Positions 3,970-61,117 of a stretch of DNA of 64,000 bases are shown here, one piece after another. Positions within the stretch are counted from its first letter, which is position 1; every line of letters starts with the position of its first letter. The DNA comes from an uncultured Candidatus Saccharibacteria bacterium (GTDB lineage: Bacteria > Patescibacteriota > Minisyncoccia > Phycocordibacterales > UBA9973). Position numbers and translations under genes: made by a program. Location: the NCBI GenBank assembly GCA_964456475.1, contig CAYVZI010000007.1:294-64293 (forward strand). The letters are read 5' to 3'. The notes beneath the pieces are model-generated. The model was not told where the DNA came from. It did not search any database and saw only the letters and a list, made by a program, of their open reading frames with translations.

Positions 3970-4423
3970 TCCAGTATTTAATATATTTAGGAGTAATTAT
4001 CCAGACTTTTGAATCTTTATCGTTGTCGTGAATCCATTTAATAGTAATTCTTTCTTTGAATTCAGGACATTTTGCGTTGTGAAGTTTTACACCTTTTGTA
4101 ATCTCATCCTCAGTTTCTGCAATCCTGCAAATACCAGTTCCCTGAACACCTTTTCGGTCAGTTGAATCATCAGGATTAAACCATGCGGTGGCGAATGCAA
4201 CCGAGTCATTTGCAAGTATCTCTTGTGAATGACGTGTATCCTTTGAACTAATGAAATACAGTGTTCCTTTTTCATCTGAACACATATACACATTCGCAAC
4301 CCAGGGTGTACTTGAGTTTGTTGTTGCAAGTGTAAATAGTTTTTGTGACTGTAGAAATTCTATAAGATTTTCCATTTTATTTAAGGGGAGGTTGGTCACA
4401 GATAATCTTTCGCCGTCGCTCAA
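3926..4423 (-). CDS. pyridoxamine 5-phosphate oxidase-like FMN-binding split-barrel protein
   Basis: 165 aa; LFTLATTNSSTPWVANVYM...LYFISSKDTRHSQEI pattern typical of the PNPOx-like / general stress protein 26 family. Confidence 0.55.
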   Translation of the reverse strand: MSDGERLSVTNLPLNKMENLIEFLQSQKLFTLATTNSSTPWVANVYMCSDEKGTLYFISSKDTRHSQEILANDSVAFATAWFNPDDSTDRKGVQGTGICRIAETEDEITKGVKLHNAKCPEFKERITIKWIHDNDKDSKVWIITPKYIKYWNDRKPETKEQEFNF

Positions 4424-4544
4424 GATTTCCGCGACCCCGCCTCACGGTTTCGCGTGCTCGCGAAACATCGTTCCGGCTTTCAACTCCCTCACACGAACCA
4501 AGTAGTTGGTTCGCTCTTCGGTACAATTTCATTATATTCAATTG

Positions 4545-4625: not shown

Positions 4626-4828
4626 ATACTTTTCTTTTTTGGGTCATCCTGAATTTATTTCAGGATCCAGGTTTATACGGATTCAATTAGCCTGGATTCC
4701 CGGTCAAGCCAGGAATGACAATGCAGAATCCAATACTCGGAGATTCTAACCTATTATTCACATTTTTTCCAGGGTTTATGTGTTTTCCCCGACTTTCGAC
4801 TTTCGACTTTATGACTTATACTAGCTCC

Positions 4829-23314: not shown

Positions 23315-23597
23315 TACTGTTGTTATGGAAGAAGAATTCCATGTATACATACTCGAGTGTTCAGATAAAACACTCTATATCGGTTCGACAAATGACTTGG
23401 AAAAGCGACTCCACGCACACAATCATTTGAAATCCGGGGCGCACTATACGAAGATTCGACGCCCTGTAGTTTTGAAATACAGTGAAAAACACCCTACATA
23501 CTCAAAAGTGAGGGAAAGAGAGGGTGAGTTGAAGAGACTTACGAGAGCGGAGAAGTTGAAATTGATTCAAAAGAGAAAATCCAAATCTGGATCCTGA
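23301..23597 (+). CDS. GIY-YIG nuclease superfamily protein (UPF0213-like)
   Basis: FHVYILECSDKTLYIGSTNDLEKRLHAHN is a GIY-YIG core. Overlaps the upstream gene by 14 nt. Confidence 0.75.
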   Translation: MRHTNTVVMEEEFHVYILECSDKTLYIGSTNDLEKRLHAHNHLKSGAHYTKIRRPVVLKYSEKHPTYSKVREREGELKRLTRAEKLKLIQKRKSKSGS

Positions 23598-23674
23598 AAC
23601 TAGTTCAGGATGGCCCAGGGAATCGTAACCGGGTATTTGTGTTGGTTTTATAAACTTTACAAACTTTTTAACTT

Positions 23675-26807: not shown

Positions 26808-27227
26808 ATGCAAAAAGGTGTATTGAAGTATGAATTAAAATTTGCTGAGACCGGGAGATCGGCAGCCTATTTTTGTAACGGCGTTCAAGTCAGCCCAGAC
26901 TTTACATGTCAGAGTAATCTGATCAAGGTTGTCCTTGTATTGTCAGAGCTAAAATTGATAACGAGCGAAAAGCATAATGAGATGCTAAGCTCGATTATTG
27001 AAAACAAAAAGATGCCGGCGGTGATGCCAGGCATGATGAATTTCTCTGTTGTAGTTACGGATGACTTCAATATTATTGTGGAGGCATGTGGAATGACGTT
27101 TAATACAAAAGCATTCCATCCCACCTCGTATTATGGCAATATTTTCAATGGCTTCCAGGAAAACATCTATTTCAATTCATTCTTTAAGAAAAAAGAACAA
27201 AGTGAGCCAGCTTCTGTTCATAACTAA
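26808..27227 (+). CDS. hypothetical protein
   Basis: 139-aa ORF followed by a terminator; no motif. Confidence 0.4.
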   Translation: MQKGVLKYELKFAETGRSAAYFCNGVQVSPDFTCQSNLIKVVLVLSELKLITSEKHNEMLSSIIENKKMPAVMPGMMNFSVVVTDDFNIIVEACGMTFNTKAFHPTSYYGNIFNGFQENIYFNSFFKKKEQSEPASVHN

Positions 27228-27243
27228 TTTGCCAGAATGATGG

Positions 27244-27275
27244 CAAAACCCCGCTGTAACACAGCGGGGTTTTTT
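27244..27275 (+). terminator. rho-independent terminator
   Basis: AAAACCCCGCTGT-aaca-CAGCGGGGTTTTTT. Confidence 0.75.
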
Positions 27276-27277
27276 AA

Positions 27278-27317
27278 TACCCGCACACTTCCTTTTTGCA
27301 AAAAGGAAGTGTGCGGG
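27278..27317. repeat. 40-nt perfect palindrome
   Basis: ACCCGCACACTTCCTTTTTG / CAAAAAGGAAGTGTGCGGGT are exact reverse complements with no spacer. Confidence 0.8.
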
Positions 27318-27329
27318 TATACTGGGTTC

Positions 27330-36727: not shown

Positions 36728-39700
36728 ATGAGAGTATTTTGCACTTCATTGATGATAAAAAAAGCCTTGCGTTATATAGATATAATAAAGAGTATGGTAA
36801 ACAAAAAAAGTTTGCCGTCTTCGCGTTCTTTTTTTCCTAAACAATCTAATGTTCTTAATCTAAAAAAGAAATCGCCCATTATTGAAATCCATATTCCCGT
36901 ATTGAAAGATTTTTATTTTGAGCACAAGAATACAATTCTCAAATTTGTTTCATTTGTTGTTTGTCTTAGTATTTTGACATCATTCTTTCGAGTCAATGCA
37001 TCAACGGCAGTATTCTATCCAGAGAATTGTTTGGGTGGATGGCAACACACAAAAAATGCTCAGGGCAAGCCGAGTCTTGAAGAAGATGCACCTGCAGAAA
37101 AATTTACAATTCAAAACTCTGCAGTTCTTGGAAACTCGTCTGCTCAAATATTTTGTGGTGCTTTCGTCGGAGAAATTCCAGAAGATACAATGCCGAAGAA
37201 ATTTTTGCTTTCGTTGCGTTGGTCTGTGGATGATGGATCTGTAGTTCACCAGAATGAAACAGATATTGGGTCACCATTTGGTAGCGCAGAAAAAGTTCCT
37301 TCGTCTATTCCGGAATCAAACGCAGAAAATACTGTATCCGAACATACTACAGTTCCTACCACTGATACTGTTCCCCCAGAGGATGCAAGTGTGATTACTA
37401 TTACGCCTTCAGAATCTCAAGATGCATCATCGACATCTGAGCCCACACCTACAACTGACGGAGATCAGTCATTCCTCGATTATTTTTCACCGACAAAAGT
37501 ACATGCTGAAGATACACAATCTGACTCTGCTTCTATTCAAACGGAACAACCAGCAGTATTAGAAAATACCACAAGCACACCTTTGCAAGAAACAAACATT
37601 GTTTCGAATGATACGCCTGTCGATTCTAGTACAACTGTAGAAACAGAGTCACAATCGGAAGAAATTCAAAACAATACTAGTCTCGAAGTTTTGTCTACGC
37701 CAGAAGACGATGGAGCATTTGCTAAAGTGTCCTACACTCTTGATGGTGTCGCATGGAATACTTTGGGTAAAGTAAGTGTCGCTAACTGGAAACAGTCCAC
37801 GTTTGATATTCCACTTGGTACATGGACTGATATCTCGAAACTCCAGGTTTCGATTGATACAATTGTAAGTTATGACAAACAGCCGGTGGTGTATCTCGAT
37901 GCAATGGAGATATCTGTTGAATACGAAGAGGGAAAAATCTTTCAAAAGCCAACAGTGACGATAAAAAATGGTGATGCCCAAGTACTCGAAGGAGATACTG
38001 ATTTTTCTTCAGGCGAGGCACCGATGTTTGCTGTTGTTGACCCGAATCTTTCTCGAAGAGAACTCGCTGATTTGGTAAAGGATAAAAAAGCAGAAGTTGT
38101 TCAAGATTCAGACAAAGTTCTTTCTCCAGAACCTGAAAAGCAAGAAATTGTTCAAACAGAAACTTCAAATTCTAATACGCTTCTTGATGGTATTAAAAAT
38201 GTATTTTCTAGAGATGTTGAAAACGATACACCAAAAGAAAATAATACAGATACACAAACATCACAACCAGATCCTGTAGTAGATACTATTCCTGCTTCAG
38301 AAAGTACAAGAGAAGGTGAACAAACAGCTCCAGTCGAGGTTATTGAAGGTGCTCCTACAGAAGAGGCCGTTACTGCTCCAGAAAATCCACCAGCTGAAAC
38401 TCCAACACCGAGCGATCCTGTTGTCGCTATCTCTCAATTTTTCAAAAAGACGACTGTGTCAAAAATTGCCAGCCGTCCGCGTACATCATTGCCAAAACGA
38501 ACAGAAAATGAAAATACCCATTTATCACTTTTTGCACCGCTTGTAGCCTATGCCGAAGATATATCAGCCCGCACACCAAAAATTACCAATGCACGCGTGC
38601 TTGATTACAACGGCAACCCAACCACGATAAAAACCAAGGTTCAAACTGTCACAATCGACGGAGAGAGTCGTGACGGTGTGAGTATCGAAAAGCAGGAACG
38701 TCATTTCCGTGCAGGGCGCTATACACTCGAAGTTACCGTTGAGACCGCTACTGCAATTATTATTTCCCAACAAGATTTTACTTGGGGGGTGCTTGCAGTG
38801 AACGTAGACAAGAGTGTCTACTCTGCGGGAGATACAGCATTCCTTCAGATGGGAGTGCTTGATGACAAAGGAAATACACTCTGTGATGCACCACTTGAAC
38901 TTTCGATAAAAAGTCCTTCTGGTGCTGTGCAGCATTTTAGAACGACCGATGATACAATTCTACAAAGTAAAAAATGTGCACGAAATAATGTTGTAGAAGT
39001 CGCCGATTATTATGCTCACTATCCAATTCCTGGCGAGCCCGGTACATATATCATTCGATTGACTGCACACACCGACAACGGTACGCGTACTATTCGAGAT
39101 GTGTTTGTTGTAGGTAGTCCGGACTTTGATGTTTCCCGTGCTGCCCCAACTCGTATTTATCCATTCAGTAAATACGATTATCCAATGACGATTCGTATTA
39201 CTCCGAAGCATGATTGGTCCGGTACTGTCGTCGAAACGATTCCCGCTGGCTTTGTTATGTCTCAGCCAAAAAGTAGCCAAAAGTACGATACGCTTAAATC
39301 TACCGATGAACTCACCACTCTTACATGGGATGTTGATTTGAAAGCGGGTGAAGAAACTGTGCTCGGATATCTATTTAAGGGTCCAGAAGTGAGTCCCGAG
39401 TTTTTCTTGGTTGGACCACTCGAATTTTTTGATAAGGGCGCAGATCCCATTACTGCAATACCAGCATTCAAAGAATCTCGTTCATGGCAGATTGCAGATG
39501 ATGCAACGTGTACCGCTGCAGCGAACGGTCCTTGGAATACTTCTGGCACATGGAGTTGTGGAAACGTACCAACTTCATCAGACTCAGTTGTGATCAACGC
39601 CGGTGTTACTGTCACGATGGATGTGAATTCGGCGTCAGTGCTTGGCGTAACAATCAATGGAACACTCGATACTATTACAAGTGGAACGAGTTATTCACTT

Positions 39701-42700
39701 ACTACAACGACGCTTACTATCGGTTCGACTGGCACACTCACTGCCAATGCTTCTACGATTACACTCACTGGTACGACCGGTACGCTTTTTACAATTACAT
39801 CTGGCGGAGTCTTTACCCAAGGGACATCTGAAGTAGTGGTGACAAGCGCGTCTGGAACTCCGACACTATTGTCGGCGGCAACTACTTTTCATAGACTCAA
39901 GATCAATAGTACCGCTACGGTCATCAATGCAGGTGCGGCCATTACAATGAGTTCTGCTGATTCTGCCAATCGTCTCTACCTAGACTTTGGTGTACTCAAT
40001 GACGGCGGCAATCAAATAGTAGGAACTGCAAACGGAACGCTTGTTATAGATGGTGGTGCGGCGCTGTGTATTGGAGGCACTGCCTCTTCTACAAACGCGA
40101 CGTGTAATTCAGGTGCGACTCCAACTTCGGCAACTGTATTTCCGACGAACTATACAAATGGAAATATCACTATGAATGCTGCTGGTGGAGGTGGTTGGTA
40201 TAGTCCATCATGGGGCTATCGAACAAAGCTTACAATTGATGAATCCAAAGTTGGGTCTTCGGACAGCTCTGATTTTCCAGTTTTGGTTAGTTTGACAGAT
40301 AATCGTTTCAGAACAACCGGAAACGGTGGACATATGGGAAATGCTGGTGCCACGGACATGCTCTTTACTTCAAGTGATGGTACAACCAAGCTTAAACATG
40401 AAGTTGAATATTATGTTGCGTCGACCGGGCAGATAGTTGCCTGGGTCAAAATTCCAACACTTTCGTCTACGATAAATACAGAAATCTACATGTACTACGG
40501 CAATGCTGGTGCTGCCGCTCAAGCCGATGCCGCCAATGTGTGGACGAATGGATTTAAATCGGTGCTTCATGTCTCAGATGGAACAACTCTTTCGGCGACT
40601 GATTCCACAGGTACTTACAATGGAACTGTTTCTGGTACAACAGCTACAACAGGTCAGATTGATGGAGGAATGGCGGTAACATGCGGAAACGAAATTACTT
40701 CTCCTCAGGGTCTCTATACAATGGTAGGTGGAGGAAGTACCTATTCGCTTAGTATGTGGGTGTATCAAACATCTACTGGTAATCGATATATTTGGGATGG
40801 AGATTCTACCAACGGACTTTCTGCGTTTATGAGTATTCAAAGTGGAGTCAACCTTGAATGGGGTAATCGAGATATTGCTTCAGAAGGTATTTTATATCGT
40901 GTGTATACGGGGTTGAGTCTGGGTTCAGGTTCATGGCATCATATACTTGCTCAAAAAACGGGAAGTGGAAACAGTGGTGAGTTGTATGTAAATGGTGCTC
41001 TTAAAACCACGTATACTGGATCAATAGGTGGACTTAGTAATTCTTCAAGCGGTATGTATTGGGGTAATTACCATAATTCTGCAACTAACTGTCTTGATGG
41101 AACTATGGATGAAATGCGCATTTCGAGTACAACTCGTAGCGCGGATTGGGTTACAGCCGAATATAATAACCAAAGCTCTCCATCGACATTTTTCCTCACA
41201 CCAGCAACTGAAGAAGCGGTAGAAACAGATGCTACTGTTTACTACAATGCTGATGCGAATACTACGATTTCGAGCACACCTTCTTACCGCAATCTTGTGA
41301 TTGCTCCGCCAATAACTGGTACTCCAACGTATACCTTTGCTTCTGGTGCAACGACTATAAACGGAAATTTCACTATCAATCCGAGTGGATCAACCGCGCT
41401 CACTGTAAATATGGGTGATGATATTACTGTTGCCTCAACAAAGACGACAACTATCACGAGAACTTCCACTGCAACTTCTACGCTTGCGACCGTTTCAAAT
41501 GGTAATGATCTTTCAAGCGGAATTATTGTAATTGATACTGGTGGTACTCTTACTGCGAGTGGAACGACTTCGACGATAACACTCACAGGAACGAGTGGTA
41601 CTCTTCTCACTAACACAGGTACATTCACAGAAGGTACTTCGACTGTGGCGGTCACGAGTGCAACCGGGCCGGTCGCGTTGGTCTCAGCAGCAGAAACTTT
41701 TCATATCCTCACTATCAACTCCGCCTCGTCCAGTACTGTTGTGAACGCCACTGCCGCTGTTACGATTGCAGACGCAACAGGATCTGCACTCACGGTCACA
41801 TCCGGAGTATTTAATGATTCTGGTTTTGGGATTGCCACATCAGGTTCCACCAACAATACTTTAACTCTTGGTTCGGCGGGTACAATGTGTCTCGGTGGTG
41901 CAGCTGGTGCGAATACGGCAACGACCTGTGATACTAGTGCTACATCTACAACAACTCGTGCGATGCCGAGCTTTGCTTCTTACAGTTTTAATGCGACTTC
42001 AACAGTGGTCTATCTTTCGGATGCAGCAACAACTATCGCCAATGCGCAAACATACGGAAATCTTATTTTCCGACCTCGTTTTGTTGCGACAGCCCGTACA
42101 TATACTCTCGGTGGTGCAATGACAATTAACGGAGACTTTACGATTCAGCCGACAAACTTTGCCGCTCTTCTTACGGTGAATCCAGCGGGTAATATCACGG
42201 TCGCTTCTGGCAAGACAACAACTATCAGTTGTACAACCGCAACTTCAACGCTCGATCTTCGTCCGAGTTCGACTGACTACAATCTTTCCACTGGGCTTCT
42301 TGTTGTAGCAAGTGGTGGAACACTTGATGCGGGAAGTGCAGCTTCTGTCATTACACTTTCGGGAACTTCTGGCACACTCTTTACACGCGCAGGCACGTTT
42401 ACACAAGGAAGTTCAGTAGTAACACTTTCTGGAAACGGTGCAGCTACGATCAATTCGGGAACAATTACTTTTTACGATCTCACTCAAACTGGAACGGGAA
42501 CAAAAACGGTTGGAAGTTCATCTGCTCTTACCATCAACCACGACTTGATAATCTCTGCCGGAGAATTCGCACCAAATCTCCAGTTGGTTACCGCTAGTGG
42601 CACCAACGTTCTTTCAGTTGCTTCAGGTGCAACACTTTATGTAGATACGAGCACGTTTGCGGGAAATTATACTGGTTTTGATACGCGTACTATTTCAGCC

Positions 42701-45700
42701 GGCTCAACAGTGGATTACAAGCTTGCCGGAACACAGACTGTTGACTCCACACTCACGTACTCAAATTTGGTTATTTCCGGAGCTTCAGGCACAAAATCAC
42801 CGGATGGAAATATCACAGCAACACTCACGTTTGTACAATCTGGAGGTAATACATTTGACCTTCTTCCAGGTTCAACCGATTACAACCTCACTACTGGAAA
42901 TCTTACAATCGGCACGGGGTGTACACTCGATGGTGGAAGTTCTTCAGCAATTATCACACTCACAGGAACTTCCGGAACACTCTTTACAAAAACCGGAACA
43001 TTTACCCAAGGCACAACGACTGTTATTGCAACTTCTGCTTCGGGAACGCCGACACTCCTTTCTGCGGCAACCACATTCCATCGTTTGACGATTAACGCGG
43101 CGGCCACCGTAGTTAATGCTGGTGCAGCTATTACCATGAGTTCGACGAGCGCTCTCAATAGACTCTATATTCAAAAAGGTGTATTGAATGATGGCGGAAA
43201 TCAAATTACTGGTACTGCAAACGGGACACTCATTGTTGGTGGAAATGCAGCACTCTGTATTGGAGGTACGGCTACAGGAACGAACGCCACTTGTGATTCT
43301 GGTGCGACGCCGATTTCGGCCACGACATTCCCAACAAATTACACAAATGGAAATATCACGATATACGCATCTGCAATTGCAGGTTCATGGTACAGCAGTT
43401 CATGGGGTTACCGCACAAAAATCACCATTGACGATGCAAAAGTGTCTACGACAAATCATACAGACTTTCCAGTTTTGATTAATAGTACGAATGGAGATTG
43501 GAAATATACAGGCTCGGGAGGGAAAGTGGGCAACTCCGACGGCACAGATATTTTGTTCACATCATCTGATGGTACGACAAAACTCAAACATGAAATCGAG
43601 CGATATATATCCACGACAGGAGAGGTTATTGCTTGGGTAAAAGTTCCAACACTTACTACTTCGGGCGATACTGAACTCTATATGTATTACGGTAATGCTG
43701 GAGTTGGAGCGCAAGCAGATGCGGCAAACGTGTGGGATTCAAACTTCAAAACGGTGCTGCACCTTGGCGATGGTTCGACACTCTCTGCTGCGAGTTCGAC
43801 TGGTATAAATAATGGAACTAAAGTTGGAACTATTTCGGCACTTGAAGGAAAGATTGGTGGTGCGGCTTGTGCGAACGGAACCACACAGTGTAGTGGTACG
43901 GCGAGTACGAGCAATGGTCTTACATTTACTACGTTCTCCTCAACGACTCCGACTCTGACCGCATGGATCAAACTCGACAATGCAAGCGGATACCAAAACG
44001 TGGCGGCTCTCAACCAAACAAACGGAGTTTGGTTGAACGCCGGTAAAATGGACCTGTATACGACAGCCGACCATAATGCGAACACAAGTGTAGGTACAGG
44101 ATCGTGGGTGCATGTGGGTATGACGTATGATGGAACAACGATTCGTTACTATTACAACGGAGCTACTGATGGTACTGGCTCTGTTGCATCGTTTAACTAT
44201 CAAATCAACGGTATGTTTAAAGATGCGACTGGTACAGCTGAAACATTAAAGGGATCAATGGACGAAATTCGATTTTCAAATACCGTTCGTTCTGCCGGAT
44301 GGATTCAAACTGAATACAACACAATGAACTCACCATCGACATTCTATTCCCTTGGAGTAGAGGAAGTATATGGTGCGTCATCTGCAATTGTGTATTACAA
44401 CGCAGATGCGAATACAACGGTTTCGGCTACACCAACATATGCTGATTTGCGACTTCGACCCGTACTTACTGGAGACAAGACCTATACGGTTTCTAGTGCG
44501 CTTACAGTAAACGGTGATCTCAGTATCAACCCGAGTGGTAGTGCAAATACACTCACTGTGAATGCAGGTGGGCACATCACGCTTACGTATGGAACGACAA
44601 CCATTACAAGACAGGGAAGTAATGCGCTTTCTTCGCTTGATCTTCGTCCAAGTTCGACCGACTATAATCTTTCATCACAGTATCTGACTATCGCCACTGG
44701 CGGAACCCTCGATGCCACGAGTGCCGCTTCGACAATCACACTTACTGGAACATCAGGAACTCTTATTACATTTGGAGGAACTTTTAATGTCGGTACGTCA
44801 ACGGTTCTTATTTCTGGAAATGGTACGGCAACACTCAACTCTGGTGTGGGAAATTTCTATCACCTTACGCAGAATGCAACTGGCACAAAATCGCTTGGCG
44901 CTAATATTACGATCGATCCAGCGGCGACACTCACTATCACGCTCGGAACACTTGATACCACAGGTTCAAACTACATAATCTCTGCTGGCCATATTGATAT
45001 TGCAAACTCGGCAAGCGCAGTACTTACGGCAAATGCTTCCGCAGTTGGACTTACCGGAACATCCGGAACCCTGCTTACTCGTGGAAGCTCGGGTGTATTT
45101 ACCGCAGGAACTTCAATTGTTACTGCCTCGGGGAATGGTACGGCGACATTCAATTCGGGTACATTCACTGGTAGTAATGCGTTCAATGATCTCATTTCAA
45201 GCGGTACAGGCACAAAAACATTGGGAGCTGCTATAGATATTGGAGGCACGTTCGGTGTCACTGGAGGTACTTTTGCACTTAGCTCACACAATATAGGAGT
45301 TACTGGAGTTACAATCGGTGCCTCCGGTACTATCGATGGTGGAAGTGCAACGATTACAAACTCTGGAGGTTGGACAAATAGCGGAACTTATACATCGAGC
45401 ACCAGTACTGTTCTGTTTAATACTGCAAGTACGATTACTATTTCCGGAACAACAAGTTTCAATAATCTCACCATTACACACACTGCTGCAAAAGTGGTTA
45501 ACTTTGCGGCTTCTGGTGGTACTCCGACCTATACTGTAACTGGTGCCTTTACTGTGACAGGACATGCTGCTGCGCTCATCAAGCTTTGGTCGGCTTCTAG
45601 CGGAACAAAATGGGATTTGTTGCCGAGTGGTACGGCATCTGTTGATTATGTAGACGTTATGGACGGAGGCTGTCATTCTGGAGCAATTAATATTAATCCA

Positions 45701-46201
45701 ACAAATGCGACAAATAGTGGTAACAACGATTCATGTTGGGGATTTAACGTTGCTCCAACGATTACATTTTCAATTAATTCAAATTCCGTTCCACTCGGAA
45801 CACTTACTTCAGTTGGTACAGGATCAGGTTCACATACAATTAGTATGTCAACGAATACCGGCGCATTGCTCCTTAGTTATATTGGTGCAACACTGACGAG
45901 CGGAGCGAATACTATACCCGCATACCCCTCACTCTCTGCGTCGGTTGCTGGAACTGCTGGATTTGGAATAAATGCGGTTGATACGGCAATAAGCAATGCT
46001 TCCGGCACTTGTTCCGCAGCCATTGACTATGCGACGGCAAGCGCCTACACGTTCGTAACAGGAACTACAACTCCGTTTGTTACTTCTTCTTCTCCTGCTG
46101 ACTGTACAATCACTGCTACATATAAGGCAAACATCAGTACAGTTACTGCGGCCGGTTCGTATTCAACGGGTCTGACATATATCGTGACAGGCACATTTTA
46201 G
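36728..46201 (+). CDS. giant (3157 aa) cell-surface protein: N-terminal TM anchor, acidic S/T/P/E-rich linker, long T/G/S-rich beta-helix-like repeats, two DUF2341 + LamG (concanavalin-like) modules, and a WxL-like C-terminal domain ending TGTF
   Basis: Single uninterrupted 9.5-kb ORF. DUF2341 signature twice (SWGYRTKLTIDESKV...DFPVLV...DGTTKLKHEVEYY...AWVKIPTLS...IYMYYGNAG). LamG-like ends twice (MDEMRISSTTRSADWVTAEYNNQSSPSTF, MDEIRFSNTVRSAGWIQTEYNTMNSPSTF). ~300-aa T/G-rich repeats (LDLRPSSTDYNLS...GGTLDAGSA...TLTGTSGTLFT). The true start may be the internal Met MVNKKSLPSS. Confidence 0.8.
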   Translation: MRVFCTSLMIKKALRYIDIIKSMVNKKSLPSSRSFFPKQSNVLNLKKKSPIIEIHIPVLKDFYFEHKNTILKFVSFVVCLSILTSFFRVNASTAVFYPENCLGGWQHTKNAQGKPSLEEDAPAEKFTIQNSAVLGNSSAQIFCGAFVGEIPEDTMPKKFLLSLRWSVDDGSVVHQNETDIGSPFGSAEKVPSSIPESNAENTVSEHTTVPTTDTVPPEDASVITITPSESQDASSTSEPTPTTDGDQSFLDYFSPTKVHAEDTQSDSASIQTEQPAVLENTTSTPLQETNIVSNDTPVDSSTTVETESQSEEIQNNTSLEVLSTPEDDGAFAKVSYTLDGVAWNTLGKVSVANWKQSTFDIPLGTWTDISKLQVSIDTIVSYDKQPVVYLDAMEISVEYEEGKIFQKPTVTIKNGDAQVLEGDTDFSSGEAPMFAVVDPNLSRRELADLVKDKKAEVVQDSDKVLSPEPEKQEIVQTETSNSNTLLDGIKNVFSRDVENDTPKENNTDTQTSQPDPVVDTIPASESTREGEQTAPVEVIEGAPTEEAVTAPENPPAETPTPSDPVVAISQFFKKTTVSKIASRPRTSLPKRTENENTHLSLFAPLVAYAEDISARTPKITNARVLDYNGNPTTIKTKVQTVTIDGESRDGVSIEKQERHFRAGRYTLEVTVETATAIIISQQDFTWGVLAVNVDKSVYSAGDTAFLQMGVLDDKGNTLCDAPLELSIKSPSGAVQHFRTTDDTILQSKKCARNNVVEVADYYAHYPIPGEPGTYIIRLTAHTDNGTRTIRDVFVVGSPDFDVSRAAPTRIYPFSKYDYPMTIRITPKHDWSGTVVETIPAGFVMSQPKSSQKYDTLKSTDELTTLTWDVDLKAGEETVLGYLFKGPEVSPEFFLVGPLEFFDKGADPITAIPAFKESRSWQIADDATCTAAANGPWNTSGTWSCGNVPTSSDSVVINAGVTVTMDVNSASVLGVTINGTLDTITSGTSYSLTTTTLTIGSTGTLTANASTITLTGTTGTLFTITSGGVFTQGTSEVVVTSASGTPTLLSAATTFHRLKINSTATVINAGAAITMSSADSANRLYLDFGVLNDGGNQIVGTANGTLVIDGGAALCIGGTASSTNATCNSGATPTSATVFPTNYTNGNITMNAAGGGGWYSPSWGYRTKLTIDESKVGSSDSSDFPVLVSLTDNRFRTTGNGGHMGNAGATDMLFTSSDGTTKLKHEVEYYVASTGQIVAWVKIPTLSSTINTEIYMYYGNAGAAAQADAANVWTNGFKSVLHVSDGTTLSATDSTGTYNGTVSGTTATTGQIDGGMAVTCGNEITSPQGLYTMVGGGSTYSLSMWVYQTSTGNRYIWDGDSTNGLSAFMSIQSGVNLEWGNRDIASEGILYRVYTGLSLGSGSWHHILAQKTGSGNSGELYVNGALKTTYTGSIGGLSNSSSGMYWGNYHNSATNCLDGTMDEMRISSTTRSADWVTAEYNNQSSPSTFFLTPATEEAVETDATVYYNADANTTISSTPSYRNLVIAPPITGTPTYTFASGATTINGNFTINPSGSTALTVNMGDDITVASTKTTTITRTSTATSTLATVSNGNDLSSGIIVIDTGGTLTASGTTSTITLTGTSGTLLTNTGTFTEGTSTVAVTSATGPVALVSAAETFHILTINSASSSTVVNATAAVTIADATGSALTVTSGVFNDSGFGIATSGSTNNTLTLGSAGTMCLGGAAGANTATTCDTSATSTTTRAMPSFASYSFNATSTVVYLSDAATTIANAQTYGNLIFRPRFVATARTYTLGGAMTINGDFTIQPTNFAALLTVNPAGNITVASGKTTTISCTTATSTLDLRPSSTDYNLSTGLLVVASGGTLDAGSAASVITLSGTSGTLFTRAGTFTQGSSVVTLSGNGAATINSGTITFYDLTQTGTGTKTVGSSSALTINHDLIISAGEFAPNLQLVTASGTNVLSVASGATLYVDTSTFAGNYTGFDTRTISAGSTVDYKLAGTQTVDSTLTYSNLVISGASGTKSPDGNITATLTFVQSGGNTFDLLPGSTDYNLTTGNLTIGTGCTLDGGSSSAIITLTGTSGTLFTKTGTFTQGTTTVIATSASGTPTLLSAATTFHRLTINAAATVVNAGAAITMSSTSALNRLYIQKGVLNDGGNQITGTANGTLIVGGNAALCIGGTATGTNATCDSGATPISATTFPTNYTNGNITIYASAIAGSWYSSSWGYRTKITIDDAKVSTTNHTDFPVLINSTNGDWKYTGSGGKVGNSDGTDILFTSSDGTTKLKHEIERYISTTGEVIAWVKVPTLTTSGDTELYMYYGNAGVGAQADAANVWDSNFKTVLHLGDGSTLSAASSTGINNGTKVGTISALEGKIGGAACANGTTQCSGTASTSNGLTFTTFSSTTPTLTAWIKLDNASGYQNVAALNQTNGVWLNAGKMDLYTTADHNANTSVGTGSWVHVGMTYDGTTIRYYYNGATDGTGSVASFNYQINGMFKDATGTAETLKGSMDEIRFSNTVRSAGWIQTEYNTMNSPSTFYSLGVEEVYGASSAIVYYNADANTTVSATPTYADLRLRPVLTGDKTYTVSSALTVNGDLSINPSGSANTLTVNAGGHITLTYGTTTITRQGSNALSSLDLRPSSTDYNLSSQYLTIATGGTLDATSAASTITLTGTSGTLITFGGTFNVGTSTVLISGNGTATLNSGVGNFYHLTQNATGTKSLGANITIDPAATLTITLGTLDTTGSNYIISAGHIDIANSASAVLTANASAVGLTGTSGTLLTRGSSGVFTAGTSIVTASGNGTATFNSGTFTGSNAFNDLISSGTGTKTLGAAIDIGGTFGVTGGTFALSSHNIGVTGVTIGASGTIDGGSATITNSGGWTNSGTYTSSTSTVLFNTASTITISGTTSFNNLTITHTAAKVVNFAASGGTPTYTVTGAFTVTGHAAALIKLWSASSGTKWDLLPSGTASVDYVDVMDGGCHSGAININPTNATNSGNNDSCWGFNVAPTITFSINSNSVPLGTLTSVGTGSGSHTISMSTNTGALLLSYIGATLTSGANTIPAYPSLSASVAGTAGFGINAVDTAISNASGTCSAAIDYATASAYTFVTGTTTPFVTSSSPADCTITATYKANISTVTAAGSYSTGLTYIVTGTF

Positions 46202-55496: not shown

Positions 55497-55549
55497 ATAT
55501 CCCGACCTTCTCATTTACATATTCCTACGGGGAAGTGGGTACAAGGATC

Positions 55550-55599
55550 GGTCAGGAATAATTTTGCTATCGTCAAAGCAAAATTTTCACGACCCTGAC
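55550..55599. repeat. palindromic REP-like element, copy 1
   Basis: ggtcaggaataattttgctatcgtcaaagcaaaattttcacgaccctgac; internally self-complementary (GGTCAGG...CCTGACC arms around AATTTTGC...GCAAAATT). A second copy is at 56516..56564. Confidence 0.65.
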
Positions 55600-55727
55600 T
55601 CGCCATTTTTTGTGCTCAATAAATATGGCTGCGTCTTTCGATTCTCCGACACGAGACAAGTAGTTGTCTCGTTTAGAGTCACCGAACAAAAATGGCTCGA
55701 CCAAAGTCGAGCGCATTTTTGAACCGG

Positions 55728-55799
55728 TGACTCTACGGGGAATCGAACCCCGATTTAATCCTTGAGAAGGATCTGTCCTAACCGTTAGACGATAGAGCC
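55728..55799 (-). tRNA. tRNA-Glu (anticodon CTC)
   Basis: Reverse complement: acceptor GGCTCTA/TAGAGTC (one G-U pair), D-arm GTCT-AACGGTTA-GGAC, anticodon stem GATCC/GGATT with loop TTCTCAA, T-arm CGGGG-TTCGATT-CCCCG, discriminator A. Confidence 0.7.
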
Positions 55800-55920
55800 A
55801 ATATTAAATTTATACACAACCCCGATTTCAGTCACTCATAAATCGTTGTTACGATTTTGTGCGACCCCGACTCAGACCGCCGTCTTCCGTCTTTAATAAA
55901 GCATCCCATGCTTTATTAAC

Positions 55921-55958
55921 TTGAGAAGGATCTGTCCTAACCGTTAGACGATAGAGCC
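55921..55958 (-). pseudogene. duplicate of tRNA-Glu positions 1-38 (5-prime end through the anticodon loop)
   Basis: 38 nt identical to 55762..55799, lying ~120 nt upstream of the intact tRNA on the same strand. It ends exactly at the 37/38 anticodon-loop position. Confidence 0.7.
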
Positions 55959-56068
55959 TTAATAAAACAAGCTTACATTAGCACATTTTGTGTCAAGTGT
56001 AAATATTTTGACTAGAGTGATATAATAGTTACAGAAAAATATTATTAATTAGTACTAAGAAGTATTTT

Positions 56069-56308
56069 ATGCACAAAGTTTCAATCTACACGACAGACAC
56101 CTGTCACTACTGTCATCTTGCAAAGGATTATTTTAAGGAAAATAATGTTGCCTATGATGAATTTAACGTAGGAGTTGATATGGTCAAGCGAAAGGAGATG
56201 GTAGAACTCTCAAAACAGCTCGGAGTACCGGTTATCAAAATTGACGATTCATTCGTGGTTGGTTTTGATCAGCCCAAAATCGCCTCACTTCTTGGACTTT
56301 CAGCTTAA
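56069..56308 (+). CDS. glutaredoxin-like protein (NrdH/YruB-type)
   Basis: 79 aa, CHYC active site at the N-terminus, thioredoxin-fold pattern (VSIYTTDTCHYCHLAKDYF...VPVIKIDD). Confidence 0.8.
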   Translation: MHKVSIYTTDTCHYCHLAKDYFKENNVAYDEFNVGVDMVKRKEMVELSKQLGVPVIKIDDSFVVGFDQPKIASLLGLSA

Positions 56309-56356
56309 GTAAAAAATGTGTATGCTAAAGACACCCTAACGGGTGTTTTTAGATTA

Positions 56357-56428
56357 GCCCCCGTAGTTCAATGGATAGAACAGTCCCGTCCTAAGGGATA
56401 GATGCACGTTCGATTCGTACCGGGGGCA
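56357..56428 (+). tRNA. tRNA-Arg (anticodon CCT)
   Basis: Acceptor GCCCCCG/CGGGGGC, D-arm GTTC-AATGGATA-GAAC, anticodon stem GTCCC/GGGAT with loop GTCCTAA, T-arm CACG-TTCGATT-CGTA region, discriminator A. Confidence 0.75.
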
Positions 56429-56437
56429 CGAGATGGA

Positions 56438-56465
56438 AAAGAGCGAATCTACTTCGCTCTTTTTC
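56438..56465 (+). terminator. rho-independent terminator after tRNA-Arg
   Basis: AAAGAGCGAA-tctac-TTCGCTCTTT + T-run. Confidence 0.7.
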
Positions 56466-56515
56466 TATACTCGTGCCGGCCGGATCGATGTTTTACCATC
56501 GGGTAAAACCGTGAG

Positions 56516-56564
56516 GCAGGGTCGTGAAAATTTTGTTTTGACAAAAACAAAATTATTCCTGACC
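56516..56564. repeat. palindromic REP-like element, copy 2
   Basis: Reverse complement reads ggtcaggaataattttgtttttgtcaaaacaaaattttcacgaccctgcc; about 85 percent identical to copy 1. Confidence 0.65.
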
Positions 56565-56755
56565 ACACACAAAACAAAATCACCCCAAACGGGGTGATTT
56601 TGTTTTTCTGCTTGCTGGTCACAAATAATTCTTCGTCGCCACTCGGAATTTTCGCGACCCCACCTCGTGGTTTCGCGTACTCGCGAAGCATCACTCCGGT
56701 TCACAAAAGCGAAAGAGAGAGCCGTAGAGGCTCTCTCTTTACACTCACGCTTTTG

Positions 56756-56828
56756 TGCTCGGGACCAGACTCGAACCGGTGACCTATCCCTCTTCAGGGG
56801 AGCGCTCTACCAACTGAGCTACCCGAGC
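56756..56828 (-). tRNA. tRNA-Phe (anticodon GAA)
   Basis: Reverse complement GCTCGGGTAGCTCAGTTGGTAGAGCGCTCCCCTGAAGAGGGATAGGTCACCGGTTCGAGTCTGGTCCCGAGCA folds canonically with anticodon loop CTGAAGA. Confidence 0.85.
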
Positions 56829-56921
56829 ATTTATTTATTGTAAAAACAGTATCATATTCTTGGCATTTTGCCGACCCCTATCTCTCTGAGGGGATAAACA
56901 GTGTGGGACAGTGTTTATTTC

Positions 56922-56941
56922 ACCAACTGAGCTACCCGAGC
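56922..56941 (-). pseudogene. duplicate of tRNA-Phe positions 1-20 (acceptor 5-prime strand + D-arm)
   Basis: 20 nt identical to 56809..56828, ~95 nt upstream of the intact tRNA on the same strand; followed by unrelated hairpin sequence. Confidence 0.65.
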
Positions 56942-56983
56942 ATATTATTATTTTGTATTTCCTAGAGCCTAATTATCTAAGGC

Positions 56984-60774: not shown

Positions 60775-60787
60775 CTAACCATTTGTA

Positions 60788-60825
60788 ATCTATACTGTAA
60801 TTTTGCAAAATACCAGTATAGATTC
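60788..60825. promoter_or_regulatory. 38-bp imperfect palindrome (putative ArsR-type operator), copy 1
   Basis: aatctatactgtaattttgcaaaataccagtatagatt, centred on TTTTGCAAAA, immediately upstream of the arsR-like gene. Confidence 0.55.
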
Positions 60826-60838
60826 AGGCAGGTAAAAA

Positions 60839-61114
60839 ATGAACAAAGTCGAATACTATAAACTCGAAAGACTGTTCAAAGGATTTGCGAATCATCGCAG
60901 GATTGAAATCATGTTCCTTTTGGAAGAATCGCCCGAATTGTCTGTGGATGAAATATCTCAAAGACTCAGAGTGAATTTTTGTACAATATCAGACCATATT
61001 CGAAAGCTCGCACAGACAGGTTTGGTTATGAAGCGCTCCGATGGCAACTCTGTTCGACATGCCCTAACAGACAAAGGTAAATCTATACTAGTATTTTGCA
61101 AAATTACAGTATAG
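60839..61114 (+). CDS. ArsR/SmtB-family HTH transcriptional regulator
   Basis: ANHRRIEIMFLL...LSVDEISQRLRVNFCTISDHIRKLAQTGLV winged-HTH pattern. Confidence 0.7.
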   Translation: MNKVEYYKLERLFKGFANHRRIEIMFLLEESPELSVDEISQRLRVNFCTISDHIRKLAQTGLVMKRSDGNSVRHALTDKGKSILVFCKITV

Positions 61115-61117
61115 ATT
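61080..61117. promoter_or_regulatory. 38-bp palindrome, copy 2 (inverted orientation, 1 mismatch)
   Basis: aatctatactagtattttgcaaaattacagtatagatt. Overlaps the last codons of the arsR-like gene and lies upstream of rpe. Confidence 0.55.

Follow-up and report, generated by a model that had tools for sequence, protein, structure and literature searches.

Why should a bacterial tRNA gene be preceded, on its own strand, by an exact copy of its own 5' portion? The question is raised by a cluster of tRNA genes in a 64,000-nucleotide (nt) stretch of contig CAYVZI010000007.1, from an uncultured member of the Patescibacteria; this whole stretch is referred to here as the window. A preliminary description, made from the letters of the window alone, placed tRNA-Glu(CTC) and tRNA-Phe(GAA) on the minus strand and tRNA-Arg(CCT) and a glutaredoxin-like gene on the plus strand, calls that are all confirmed (Table 1), and compared the duplicated segments at the Glu and Phe genes to the classic scars of site-specific integration. 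Our results support insertion scars, but the classical pattern of integrase attachment (att) sites does not fit. Both 5' copies are probably displaced front ends, left by insertions that supplied either a new 5' part or an entire tRNA together with its leader. Of the alternatives listed in the preliminary description, unusual elements that target tRNA genes fit best.

Exact 5' copies and their inserts

Re-alignment upheld the Phe copy as nt 1-20 of its gene (20 of 20 positions). The Glu copy, first described as nt 1-38, is likewise exact, but identity extends one base further, to nt 39 (39 of 39), inside the 3' strand of the anticodon stem. The copies stand upstream of their intact genes, at 120 nt for Glu and 93 nt for Phe, which bears out the earlier remark that the duplicated part is on the unusual 5' side. 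The Phe piece adjoins the native upstream flank, and the Glu piece lies 5 nt downstream of the conserved promoter-side flank. Immediately beside each exact copy, the sequence bears no relation to the intact gene's leader; the leader has not been duplicated, which argues against a simple, recent tandem duplication, and we rejected that explanation on this ground. A split tRNA or intron was also rejected, since the downstream gene is complete and the upstream Glu piece is interrupted and shortened in two relatives, L001 and L004.

Neither the 93-nt nor the 120-nt insert contains an open reading frame (ORF). Both are composed of hairpins together with sequence related to a lineage-specific structured element that trails tRNA genes and is described below: a miniature copy in the Glu insert and the core motif in the Phe insert. 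The Phe insert has hairpins GAAATAAACA..TGTTTAT and CCCCT..AGGGG, a promoter-like site ending 9 nt before the tRNA, and the exact core motif, GGGTCGGCAAAAT, at 56865-56877. In the Glu insert, a perfect AT-rich hairpin with a TGGGA loop directly follows the fragment, and the miniature trailing element comes next; the latter has lost hairpin 1 while retaining the outer stem and hairpin 2, and has a homologue in L003 at 122-199. The TGGGA-loop hairpin also occurs in L001 and L004, where its stems are different but fully compensated, and nowhere else in 362 kilobases (kb). A genome-wide repeat was considered for it and rejected, its only occurrences being after the tRNA-Glu fragment in these three sequences.

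Two independent assemblies, 100% and 98.9% identical, also contain the Phe arrangement, which is therefore not an artefact. A similar fragment-plus-hairpin arrangement is present at tRNA-Glu in L001, a related strain.

Variation among relatives and polarity of the fragments

The closest genome, L002, whose glutaredoxin gene is 99% identical, lacks both inserts. Its tRNA-Phe is intact exactly at the position of the 20-nt fragment of the window, with a flank 96% identical, and its tRNA-Glu, identical to that of the window at every position, has no upstream fragment. L137 and L138 retain the Phe insert, and L003 has a Phe fragment with a homologous insert. In L001 and L004, the tRNA-Glu fragment is interrupted after nt 22 by the perfect TGGGA-loop hairpin. 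One orthologous site, between the gene for a small membrane protein and tRNA-Phe, occurs in many states: empty in L002, nt 1-20 plus 93 nt in the window, nt 1-20 plus 75 nt in L003, three stacked 5' pieces in L016, and nt 1-15 plus a hairpin module and a GIY-YIG nuclease ORF in L006. The inter-repeat segments, which the preliminary description proposed to compare among related genomes, are variable and do not form a conserved leader. In L034, a tRNA-Phe nt 1-23 fragment is separated from the intact tRNA-Phe by 145 nt (~4319-4463) that are a masked run of N.

A mismatch-tolerant screen for fragments of a tRNA near that same tRNA covered 81 tRNAs from the window and 46 related loci, with shuffled tRNAs as control. 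It returned 21 matches against 0 with the shuffled tRNAs, which excludes chance. The fragments have a polarity. All 12 same-strand upstream fragments begin at tRNA nt 1, and the simple downstream fragments, in L013 and L017, extend to the tRNA 3' end. One piece of an array in L002, nt 41-74, reaches the 3' end, and the others are internal (nt 23-40 and nt 41-65).

This array lies downstream of tRNA-Phe (L002 4800-5125, minus strand) and consists of two tandem 161-nt units, each with a 14-nt spacer, tRNA nt 23-40, a structured insert of 98 nt and tRNA nt 41-74; in the last of them, the 3' end is that of another allele. The 98-nt insert shares ..GAAAAGGTGTACnG..CTGTAAG with 3'-side inserts after tRNA-Arg in L013 and L017.

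A tRNA-Glu gene apparently nested in an older copy

The Glu locus of the window holds more than one fragment. Pieces corresponding to nt 1-39, 44-54 and 58-67 of a second tRNA-Glu copy occur in colinear order on both sides of the intact gene; the last lies beyond the 3' end of the gene and its trailing element, in a flank shared with L001. Matches of at least 10 nt are expected by chance 0.04 times per shuffle. The intact tRNA-Glu thus appears to be nested inside an older, split copy. The simplest reading takes two steps, in which a unit of leader, tRNA-Glu, terminator and trailing element would have been inserted in the T-loop region of the older gene, and the older copy would then have gained a further insert, the hairpin and miniature trailing element, after nt 39. 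Alternatively, the same remnants could derive from an array of cassettes that has decayed.

When tRNA-Glu(CTC) of the window (55726-55799) is aligned to that of L001 (1435-1507), about 10 of 73 positions differ, mostly as paired changes in stems, within flanks that are 91-99% identical. This suggests that the gene differs between the two strains by allele replacement and not by point-by-point drift.

A minimal GIY-YIG nuclease cassette at tRNA genes of sister lineages

L006, a metagenome-assembled genome (MAG), has the same neighbourhood of glutaredoxin, tRNA-Arg, small membrane-protein gene and tRNA-Phe as the window. Here 307 nt separate a tRNA-Phe nt 1-15 fragment from the intact tRNA-Phe, and they encode an 88-amino-acid (aa) GIY-YIG nuclease that reaches 60.9 bits with PF01541 (cut-off 22.6) and has its stop codon within the tRNA. 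In bacteria of the candidate phyla radiation (CPR), it has over 180 close homologues, of ~87 aa (85-90 aa). Residues Y6, Y16, G18, R26, H30 and E62 are invariant in 31 sequences, and from the Pfam score and this conservation the nuclease of the sister lineages looks functional. Its nearest solved relatives are of the UPF0213/YhbQ type (PDB 1zg2 and 1ywl; profile E=5e-14 and 3e-11). SLX1 and I-TevI are only distantly similar, and an NCBIfam model for group I intron endonucleases matches only the N-terminal ~35 residues, below its cut-off. At 85-90 aa, the protein showed no separate DNA-binding domain of the I-TevI/Seg type. Among viral contigs, only distant relatives of the tRNA-linked nuclease were found.

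To describe the family, 80 metagenomic loci were fetched. A tRNA on the same strand starts between -7 and +114 nt from the last codon of the ORF in 74 of the 80, and at least 16 anticodon types are represented, among them those of Thr, Arg, Lys, Phe, Val, Ile, Met, Ala and Asn. The stop codon of the nuclease is the tRNA's own T8-A9-G10 in 27 loci. A fragment of the same tRNA lies upstream of the ORF in 35 of 73 loci, compared to 1 in the control, or 37 of 59 when loci are made non-redundant.

The layout of the cassette, ~0.3 kb long, is tRNA nt 1-10/15, a two-hairpin module, tRNA nt 11/16-26, the 87-aa ORF and the intact tRNA. The module (CCCCGACG..CGTCGGGG, then xxCCGAC..GTCGGxx) is present in 68 of 74 loci, directly after tRNA nt 10-11, 13 or 15-17. 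After the module and immediately ahead of the ATG, tRNA sequence is taken up again from nt 16-18 or 11 (29 of 61 loci; ~1 in the control). Of 37 upstream pieces, 19 depart from the intact tRNA at 1-3 nt, largely at acceptor-stem positions, as expected of a displaced resident allele. Remnants also occur downstream of the intact tRNA at 19 of 57 nuclease loci (control 0), and seven of these begin at nt 16 or 10/11. L051 and L068 contain units of this design, ~85-115 nt long, that have no ORF.

Two further observations concern these loci. Small CCGAC..GTCGG hairpins are nested or in tandem within pseudo-tRNA pieces in L105, L093, L073 and L068, where they behave like self-propagating mini-palindromes. 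Next to the nuclease ORF in L102, ARAGORN calls a tRNA (1752-1825) whose anticodon, TTA, would decode the stop codon UAA; it is possibly a suppressor tRNA or a mis-call.

Proposed mechanism

In L006 and in at least nine metagenomic loci, the gene for the nuclease adjoins that for the small membrane protein, in the neighbourhood seen in the window. In seven of the nine, as in L006, the ORF abuts tRNA-Phe at the site orthologous to the Phe insert; the remaining two loci are truncated. L057 and L082 have a GIY-YIG cassette ahead of tRNA-Arg(CCT), on the side of the glutaredoxin gene, where the window has no insert. The link between window and cassette is one of architecture and position only, and from it we infer a role of the nuclease in the history of the window.

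On the reading we favour, the insertions in the window are an example of what commonly happens to tRNA genes in Patescibacteria, and the autonomous form is the minimal GIY-YIG cassette found at the same site before tRNA-Phe in sister lineages. A short piece of DNA would be inserted in the body of the gene, in the D-arm for Phe and in the anticodon-arm and T-loop regions for Glu. Each insert would bring its own leader and a replacement copy of part or all of the tRNA, so that an intact gene is regenerated downstream, while the old 5' piece would stay joined to the old upstream flank. The mechanism is most likely homing-like. The nuclease would break an unoccupied tRNA gene in its conserved 5' half, at the D-arm, and repair would copy the occupied allele as donor, the tRNA sequences acting as homology arms. 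The window inserts have no nuclease gene and would therefore be non-autonomous or decayed versions that presumably arose by the same route. A variant of this idea that needs no nuclease is illegitimate recombination, anchored by homology, in the course of DNA uptake.

Several points weigh against this reading. There is no nuclease ORF inside the window inserts, and searches by nhmmer and by regular expression found no homology between them and the two-hairpin module; the best match of a covariance model of the module in the window scores 8 bits (E about 3) and falls outside the inserts. The only GIY-YIG gene in the window, at 23325-23597 on the plus strand, is stand-alone and encodes 90 aa. 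It was considered as the local driver and rejected: it belongs to a different subfamily, highly conserved in Patescibacteria (more than 2,200 matches, many at 75-88% identity), whose members in other genomes lie among protein-coding genes (e.g. YgjP-like) and are not tRNA-linked. Break points in the clade of the window are scattered (nt 12-23, 39 and 54-58) and do not mark one site. Both window fragments are identical to the intact gene and so do not show a foreign origin. How a protein of 87 aa that is a catalytic domain only could recognise a specific DNA sequence is not obvious, and the presumed target would persist in the intact tRNA of an occupied allele. The preservation of the TGGGA hairpin with compensated stems in three lineages hints at a selected role of the fragment region, for which a mere scar would not account. 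Finally, no independent assembly of the same strain was found that would confirm the Glu arrangement.

A more far-reaching scenario is offered tentatively, as a possibility that we hold in some doubt. Undescribed minimal mobile elements in Patescibacteria would home to the D-arm region of many tRNA genes, each with its 87-aa nuclease placed between a displaced 5' piece split by the module and a regenerated tRNA. The tRNA segments would be portable homology arms, and conceivably a guide. The ORF-less inserts of the window, and the tRNA-trailing elements too, would be non-autonomous members mobilised in trans. With tRNA nt 8-10 as stop codon, processing by RNase P would strip the stop codon from the message and so throttle expression of the nuclease.

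Alternative explanations

Local duplication of tRNA cassettes, each consisting of tRNA, hairpin and trailing element, by unequal recombination or replication slippage and followed by decay, would dispense with any nuclease or mobile element. Internal deletion and insertion of a hairpin would have followed, with gene conversion keeping the pieces identical. The Glu fragment, hairpin and miniature trailing element do stand in normal cassette order, tandem units exist in L016 and L002, and the colinearity of the Glu remnants is expected by chance in about one of six orderings; fragments in L001, L003 and L004 track their own tRNA allele, as gene conversion predicts. Against such a history, leaders beside the exact copies are not duplicated, and decay does not account for polarity, in which upstream pieces start from nt 1 and simple downstream pieces run to the 3' end. 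Nor would it be expected that downstream remnants at 7 of 19 loci start at nt 16 or 10/11, complementing upstream breaks at nt 15 or 10, or that an ORF-bearing cassette repeatedly occupies the same site. Gene conversion across tracts of 11-20 nt is itself unlikely. We consider this explanation unlikely overall, if the strongest of the competitors.

Classical att duplications by elements with a tyrosine or serine recombinase, later deleted almost entirely to leave ~100 nt between attL and attR, are a second alternative. Anticodon-arm and T-loop positions are typical integrase crossover sites in tRNA genes, and breaks do fall near them (Glu nt 39 and nt 54-58; Arg nt 56/57 in L013 and L017). The insert is variable and lies between direct repeats of a tRNA segment, the stacking of fragments recalls integrations in tandem, and presence of the insert is polymorphic among relatives, all as this explanation would have it. 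Yet an element duplicating the 5' part would need to supply a promoter, and, as inserts measure 42-160 nt in many independent genomes, the same near-total deletion would have had to happen again and again. The preliminary description saw no integrase nearby, and indeed no recombinase domain was detected in 10 of the larger ORFs between 50.4 and 62.8 kb; the ORF-bearing versions encode a GIY-YIG nuclease, not a recombinase. We regard att duplication as improbable. Less probable still is a functional leader, formed by the 5' copy and hairpin, that would act as a decoy or alternative pairing partner for the tRNA 3' half and so bear on folding, processing or transcription control. Co-variation of fragments with their own tRNA at stem positions would suit such a role, as would the restriction of the compensated TGGGA-loop hairpin to this position in three lineages and the persistence of the old promoter-side flank next to the fragment. 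Against it, the segment is absent from the closest genome, where tRNA-Glu is identical, states at the same site vary widely, the fragment is broken up and shortened in L001 and L004, and no Rfam family matches. A phage origin was tried separately and rejected; when the region was compared by blastn to 50,697 phage records, the only matches were generic ones to tRNAs.

A structured element that trails tRNA genes

The preliminary description also reported paired palindromic elements resembling repetitive extragenic palindromic (REP) sequences on either side of the segment from tRNA-Glu to tRNA-Arg. The inverted pair stands (55550-55609 and 56505-56564; 60 nt, 87% complementary), but its members are parts of longer elements of ~100 nt. 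That they bracket a mobile segment is not borne out: both are copies of a structured element always located downstream of a tRNA, and they are inverted only because tRNA-Glu and tRNA-Arg are oppositely oriented.

Copies of the element were found by profile search (nhmmer), then by covariance model. The window has five, the miniature included, and the closest relatives have more. All strong copies begin or end their course downstream of a tRNA at a distance of 39-84 nt, on the strand of that tRNA and past a terminator-like hairpin. Each of the nine strong copies from nhmmer follows a tRNA on its own strand; two miniature copies, detected by the covariance model alone, are beside tRNA-Glu pieces. 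The consensus fold has 31 pairs, with 96% of cells paired compared to 83% when shuffled and 38-49% with slid partners. Changes on both sides affect 18 pairs, where 8.4 are expected and none of 500 shuffles reaches 18. Two G-U pairs, one invariant and one in six of eight copies, mean that the structure is strand-specific, as RNA or as single-stranded DNA. This is an uncatalogued structured element with strong covariation. Only tRNAs pass in a search with Rfam 15, and the trailing element, the inserts and the leaders of the cassettes score far below gathering thresholds. The covariance model has no match in the Phe insert.

The element resembles REP sequences, bacterial interspersed mosaic elements (BIMEs), miniature inverted-repeat transposable elements (MITEs) and attC-type repeats of integrons in being short, imperfectly palindromic and intergenic, with compensatory changes and a variable centre. 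Unlike REP sequences and MITEs, which are dispersed irrespective of the neighbouring gene, it is tied to the position and strand of a tRNA. No terminal inverted repeats or target duplications were recognised. No transposase or integrase associated with it was seen in the 64 kb, and it has no Rfam match.

A weak match to the covariance model at 27225-27325 on the plus strand (18.8 bits, E about 0.003) has no tRNA near it, overlaps coding ORFs, and is probably spurious. A different hairpin, TGGATCCTGAA-N5-TTCAGGATG, occurs exactly twice in the window (0 expected), at 4645-4669 on the minus strand, ~20 nt upstream of tRNA-Leu, and at 23588-23612 on the plus strand, over the stop codon of ORF 23325-23597.

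Setting of the locus

The window is a segment of a bacterial chromosome, with genes for ParB, TopA, SerRS, RelA/SpoT, a penicillin-binding protein, a Mur ligase, GAPDH and a split transketolase. All related contigs belong to MAGs of Patescibacteria (CPR), of Nomurabacteria/Paceibacteria type. The neighbourhood of glutaredoxin, tRNA-Arg(CCT) and tRNA-Phe(GAA) is kept across the clade (L001-L046), and the strand of each tRNA gene flips between genomes. Elsewhere in the window, a 38-nt sequence occurs at 60787-60824 and 61080-61117, ~290 nt apart, with direct and inverted matches that were seen on aligning L139, and positions 36728-46201 of the plus strand are one ORF of 3,157 aa. Features of the locus are collected in Table 1.

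Table 1. Positions in the window of the tRNA genes, their partial copies and associated elements
Feature	Positions	Strand	Remarks
Trailing element after tRNA-Leu(CAA)	4388..4487	-	113 bits; away from the locus, shows that the family is window-wide
tRNA-Glu nt 58-67, exact remnant	55525..55534	-	3' of intact gene and trailing element; flank common to L001
Trailing element after tRNA-Glu	55544..55645	-	90 bits; includes previously described palindrome 55550-55599
Terminator-like hairpin 3' of tRNA-Glu	55695..55712	-	
tRNA-Glu(CTC), intact	55726-55799	-	ARAGORN and Rfam, 61 bits; 100% identity to L002 gene
tRNA-Glu nt 44-54, exact remnant	55818..55828	-	
Miniature trailing element in Glu inter-repeat segment	55824..55901	-	Covariance model 33.9 bits, E about 2e-7; outside training set
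Perfect 11-bp AT-rich hairpin, TGGGA loop	55893..55919	-	Directly 3' of Glu fragment
tRNA-Glu nt 1-39, exact copy	55920..55958	-	39/39; 5 nt downstream of conserved promoter-side flank
Glutaredoxin gene	56069-56308	+	Pfam E=4e-16; conserved anchor of neighbourhood
tRNA-Arg(CCT)	56357-56429	+	ARAGORN and Rfam; no insert on 5' side in window
Trailing element after tRNA-Arg	56469..56570	+	91 bits; includes previously described palindrome 56516-56564
Trailing element after tRNA-Phe	56611..56710	-	102 bits
Terminator-like hairpin 3' of tRNA-Phe	56712..56740	-	
tRNA-Phe(GAA), intact	56755-56828	-	ARAGORN and Rfam, 65 bits
Phe inserted segment, 93 nt	56829..56921	-	Homologous insert in L003; present in L137, L138; absent in L002
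tRNA-Phe nt 1-20, exact copy (displaced 5' piece)	56922..56941	-	20/20; adjoins native upstream flank

Comparison with known systems

tRNA genes are usually seen as passive landing pads, with integrases using their 3' ends. In the present case the 5' half would be the target, and the invader would regenerate the gene by bringing a new front end and leader. The invader of the sister lineages, with one 87-aa nuclease gene, is about minimal for an autonomous element. If confirmed, the process would provide a mechanism by which tRNA genes of ultra-small bacteria turn over fast, have their alleles replaced and flip in orientation, as well as a new compact nuclease with a conserved DNA target, and it would explain assembly breaks and odd pseudo-tRNA pieces in CPR genomes. 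The window itself holds ORF-less scars only.

Full-text literature searches, with most subscription journals outside their coverage, returned no description of a link between GIY-YIG nucleases and tRNA genes in CPR bacteria or of the arrangement seen here, and the family of tRNA-gene-invading elements is apparently undescribed. We know of no described link to tRNA genes for UPF0213/YhbQ-type proteins either. UPF0213 proteins, at 96-107 aa, are similar in size to the tRNA-linked nuclease and functionally uncharacterised; the member of this broader group in the window is not tRNA-linked.

Integrase att scars share with the present case the direct repeats of a tRNA segment flanking an insert, the use of tRNA genes as hot spots and the capacity of fragments to stack. 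Classical scars duplicate the 3' part and keep a recombinase gene, whereas here the 5' part is duplicated around inserts of ~100 nt with no recombinase. Seg proteins, of ~200 aa or more, have DNA-binding domains, and to our knowledge neither partial tRNA duplication nor a hairpin module has been described for them. SegB of phage T4 is a free-standing GIY-YIG homing endonuclease in a tRNA gene cluster, where it promotes intron-less homing with co-conversion of neighbouring tRNA sequence (PMC2330249). SegB and the cassette are alike in placing a GIY-YIG nuclease gene among tRNA genes; Seg systems are found in phage, and the present case in a cellular chromosome.

Besides SegB, the closest parallel comes from mobile ORFs (mORFs) that bring a replacement portion of a gene in fungal mitochondria, and both are precedents for the reading favoured here. 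Examples are found in atp6 of Allomyces macrogynus and atp6, atp9, cox2 and nad3 of Glomus (PMC3630166). A mORF combines an endonuclease ORF (GIY-YIG in atp9) with a copy of part of the invaded gene, giving a functional hybrid gene; the native part remains as a duplicate that can be a different allele, and presence varies between close relatives (PMC3630166). Common to mORFs and the present case is the duplication of part of a gene, with one copy completing a functional gene and the other displaced. The mORFs replace the 3' (C-terminal) part of a protein gene, whereas the present case concerns the 5' part of a tRNA gene, on the chromosome of a bacterium. The cassette differs further in its ORF of only ~87 aa, in the two-hairpin module that splits the displaced piece, and in the possible stop on tRNA nt 8-10; the window copies differ in having no ORF. 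The elements are thus distinct from known systems in invading the 5' side of cellular tRNA genes, in their extremely small size, in the module splitting the displaced piece, and in the use of tRNA bases as a stop codon.

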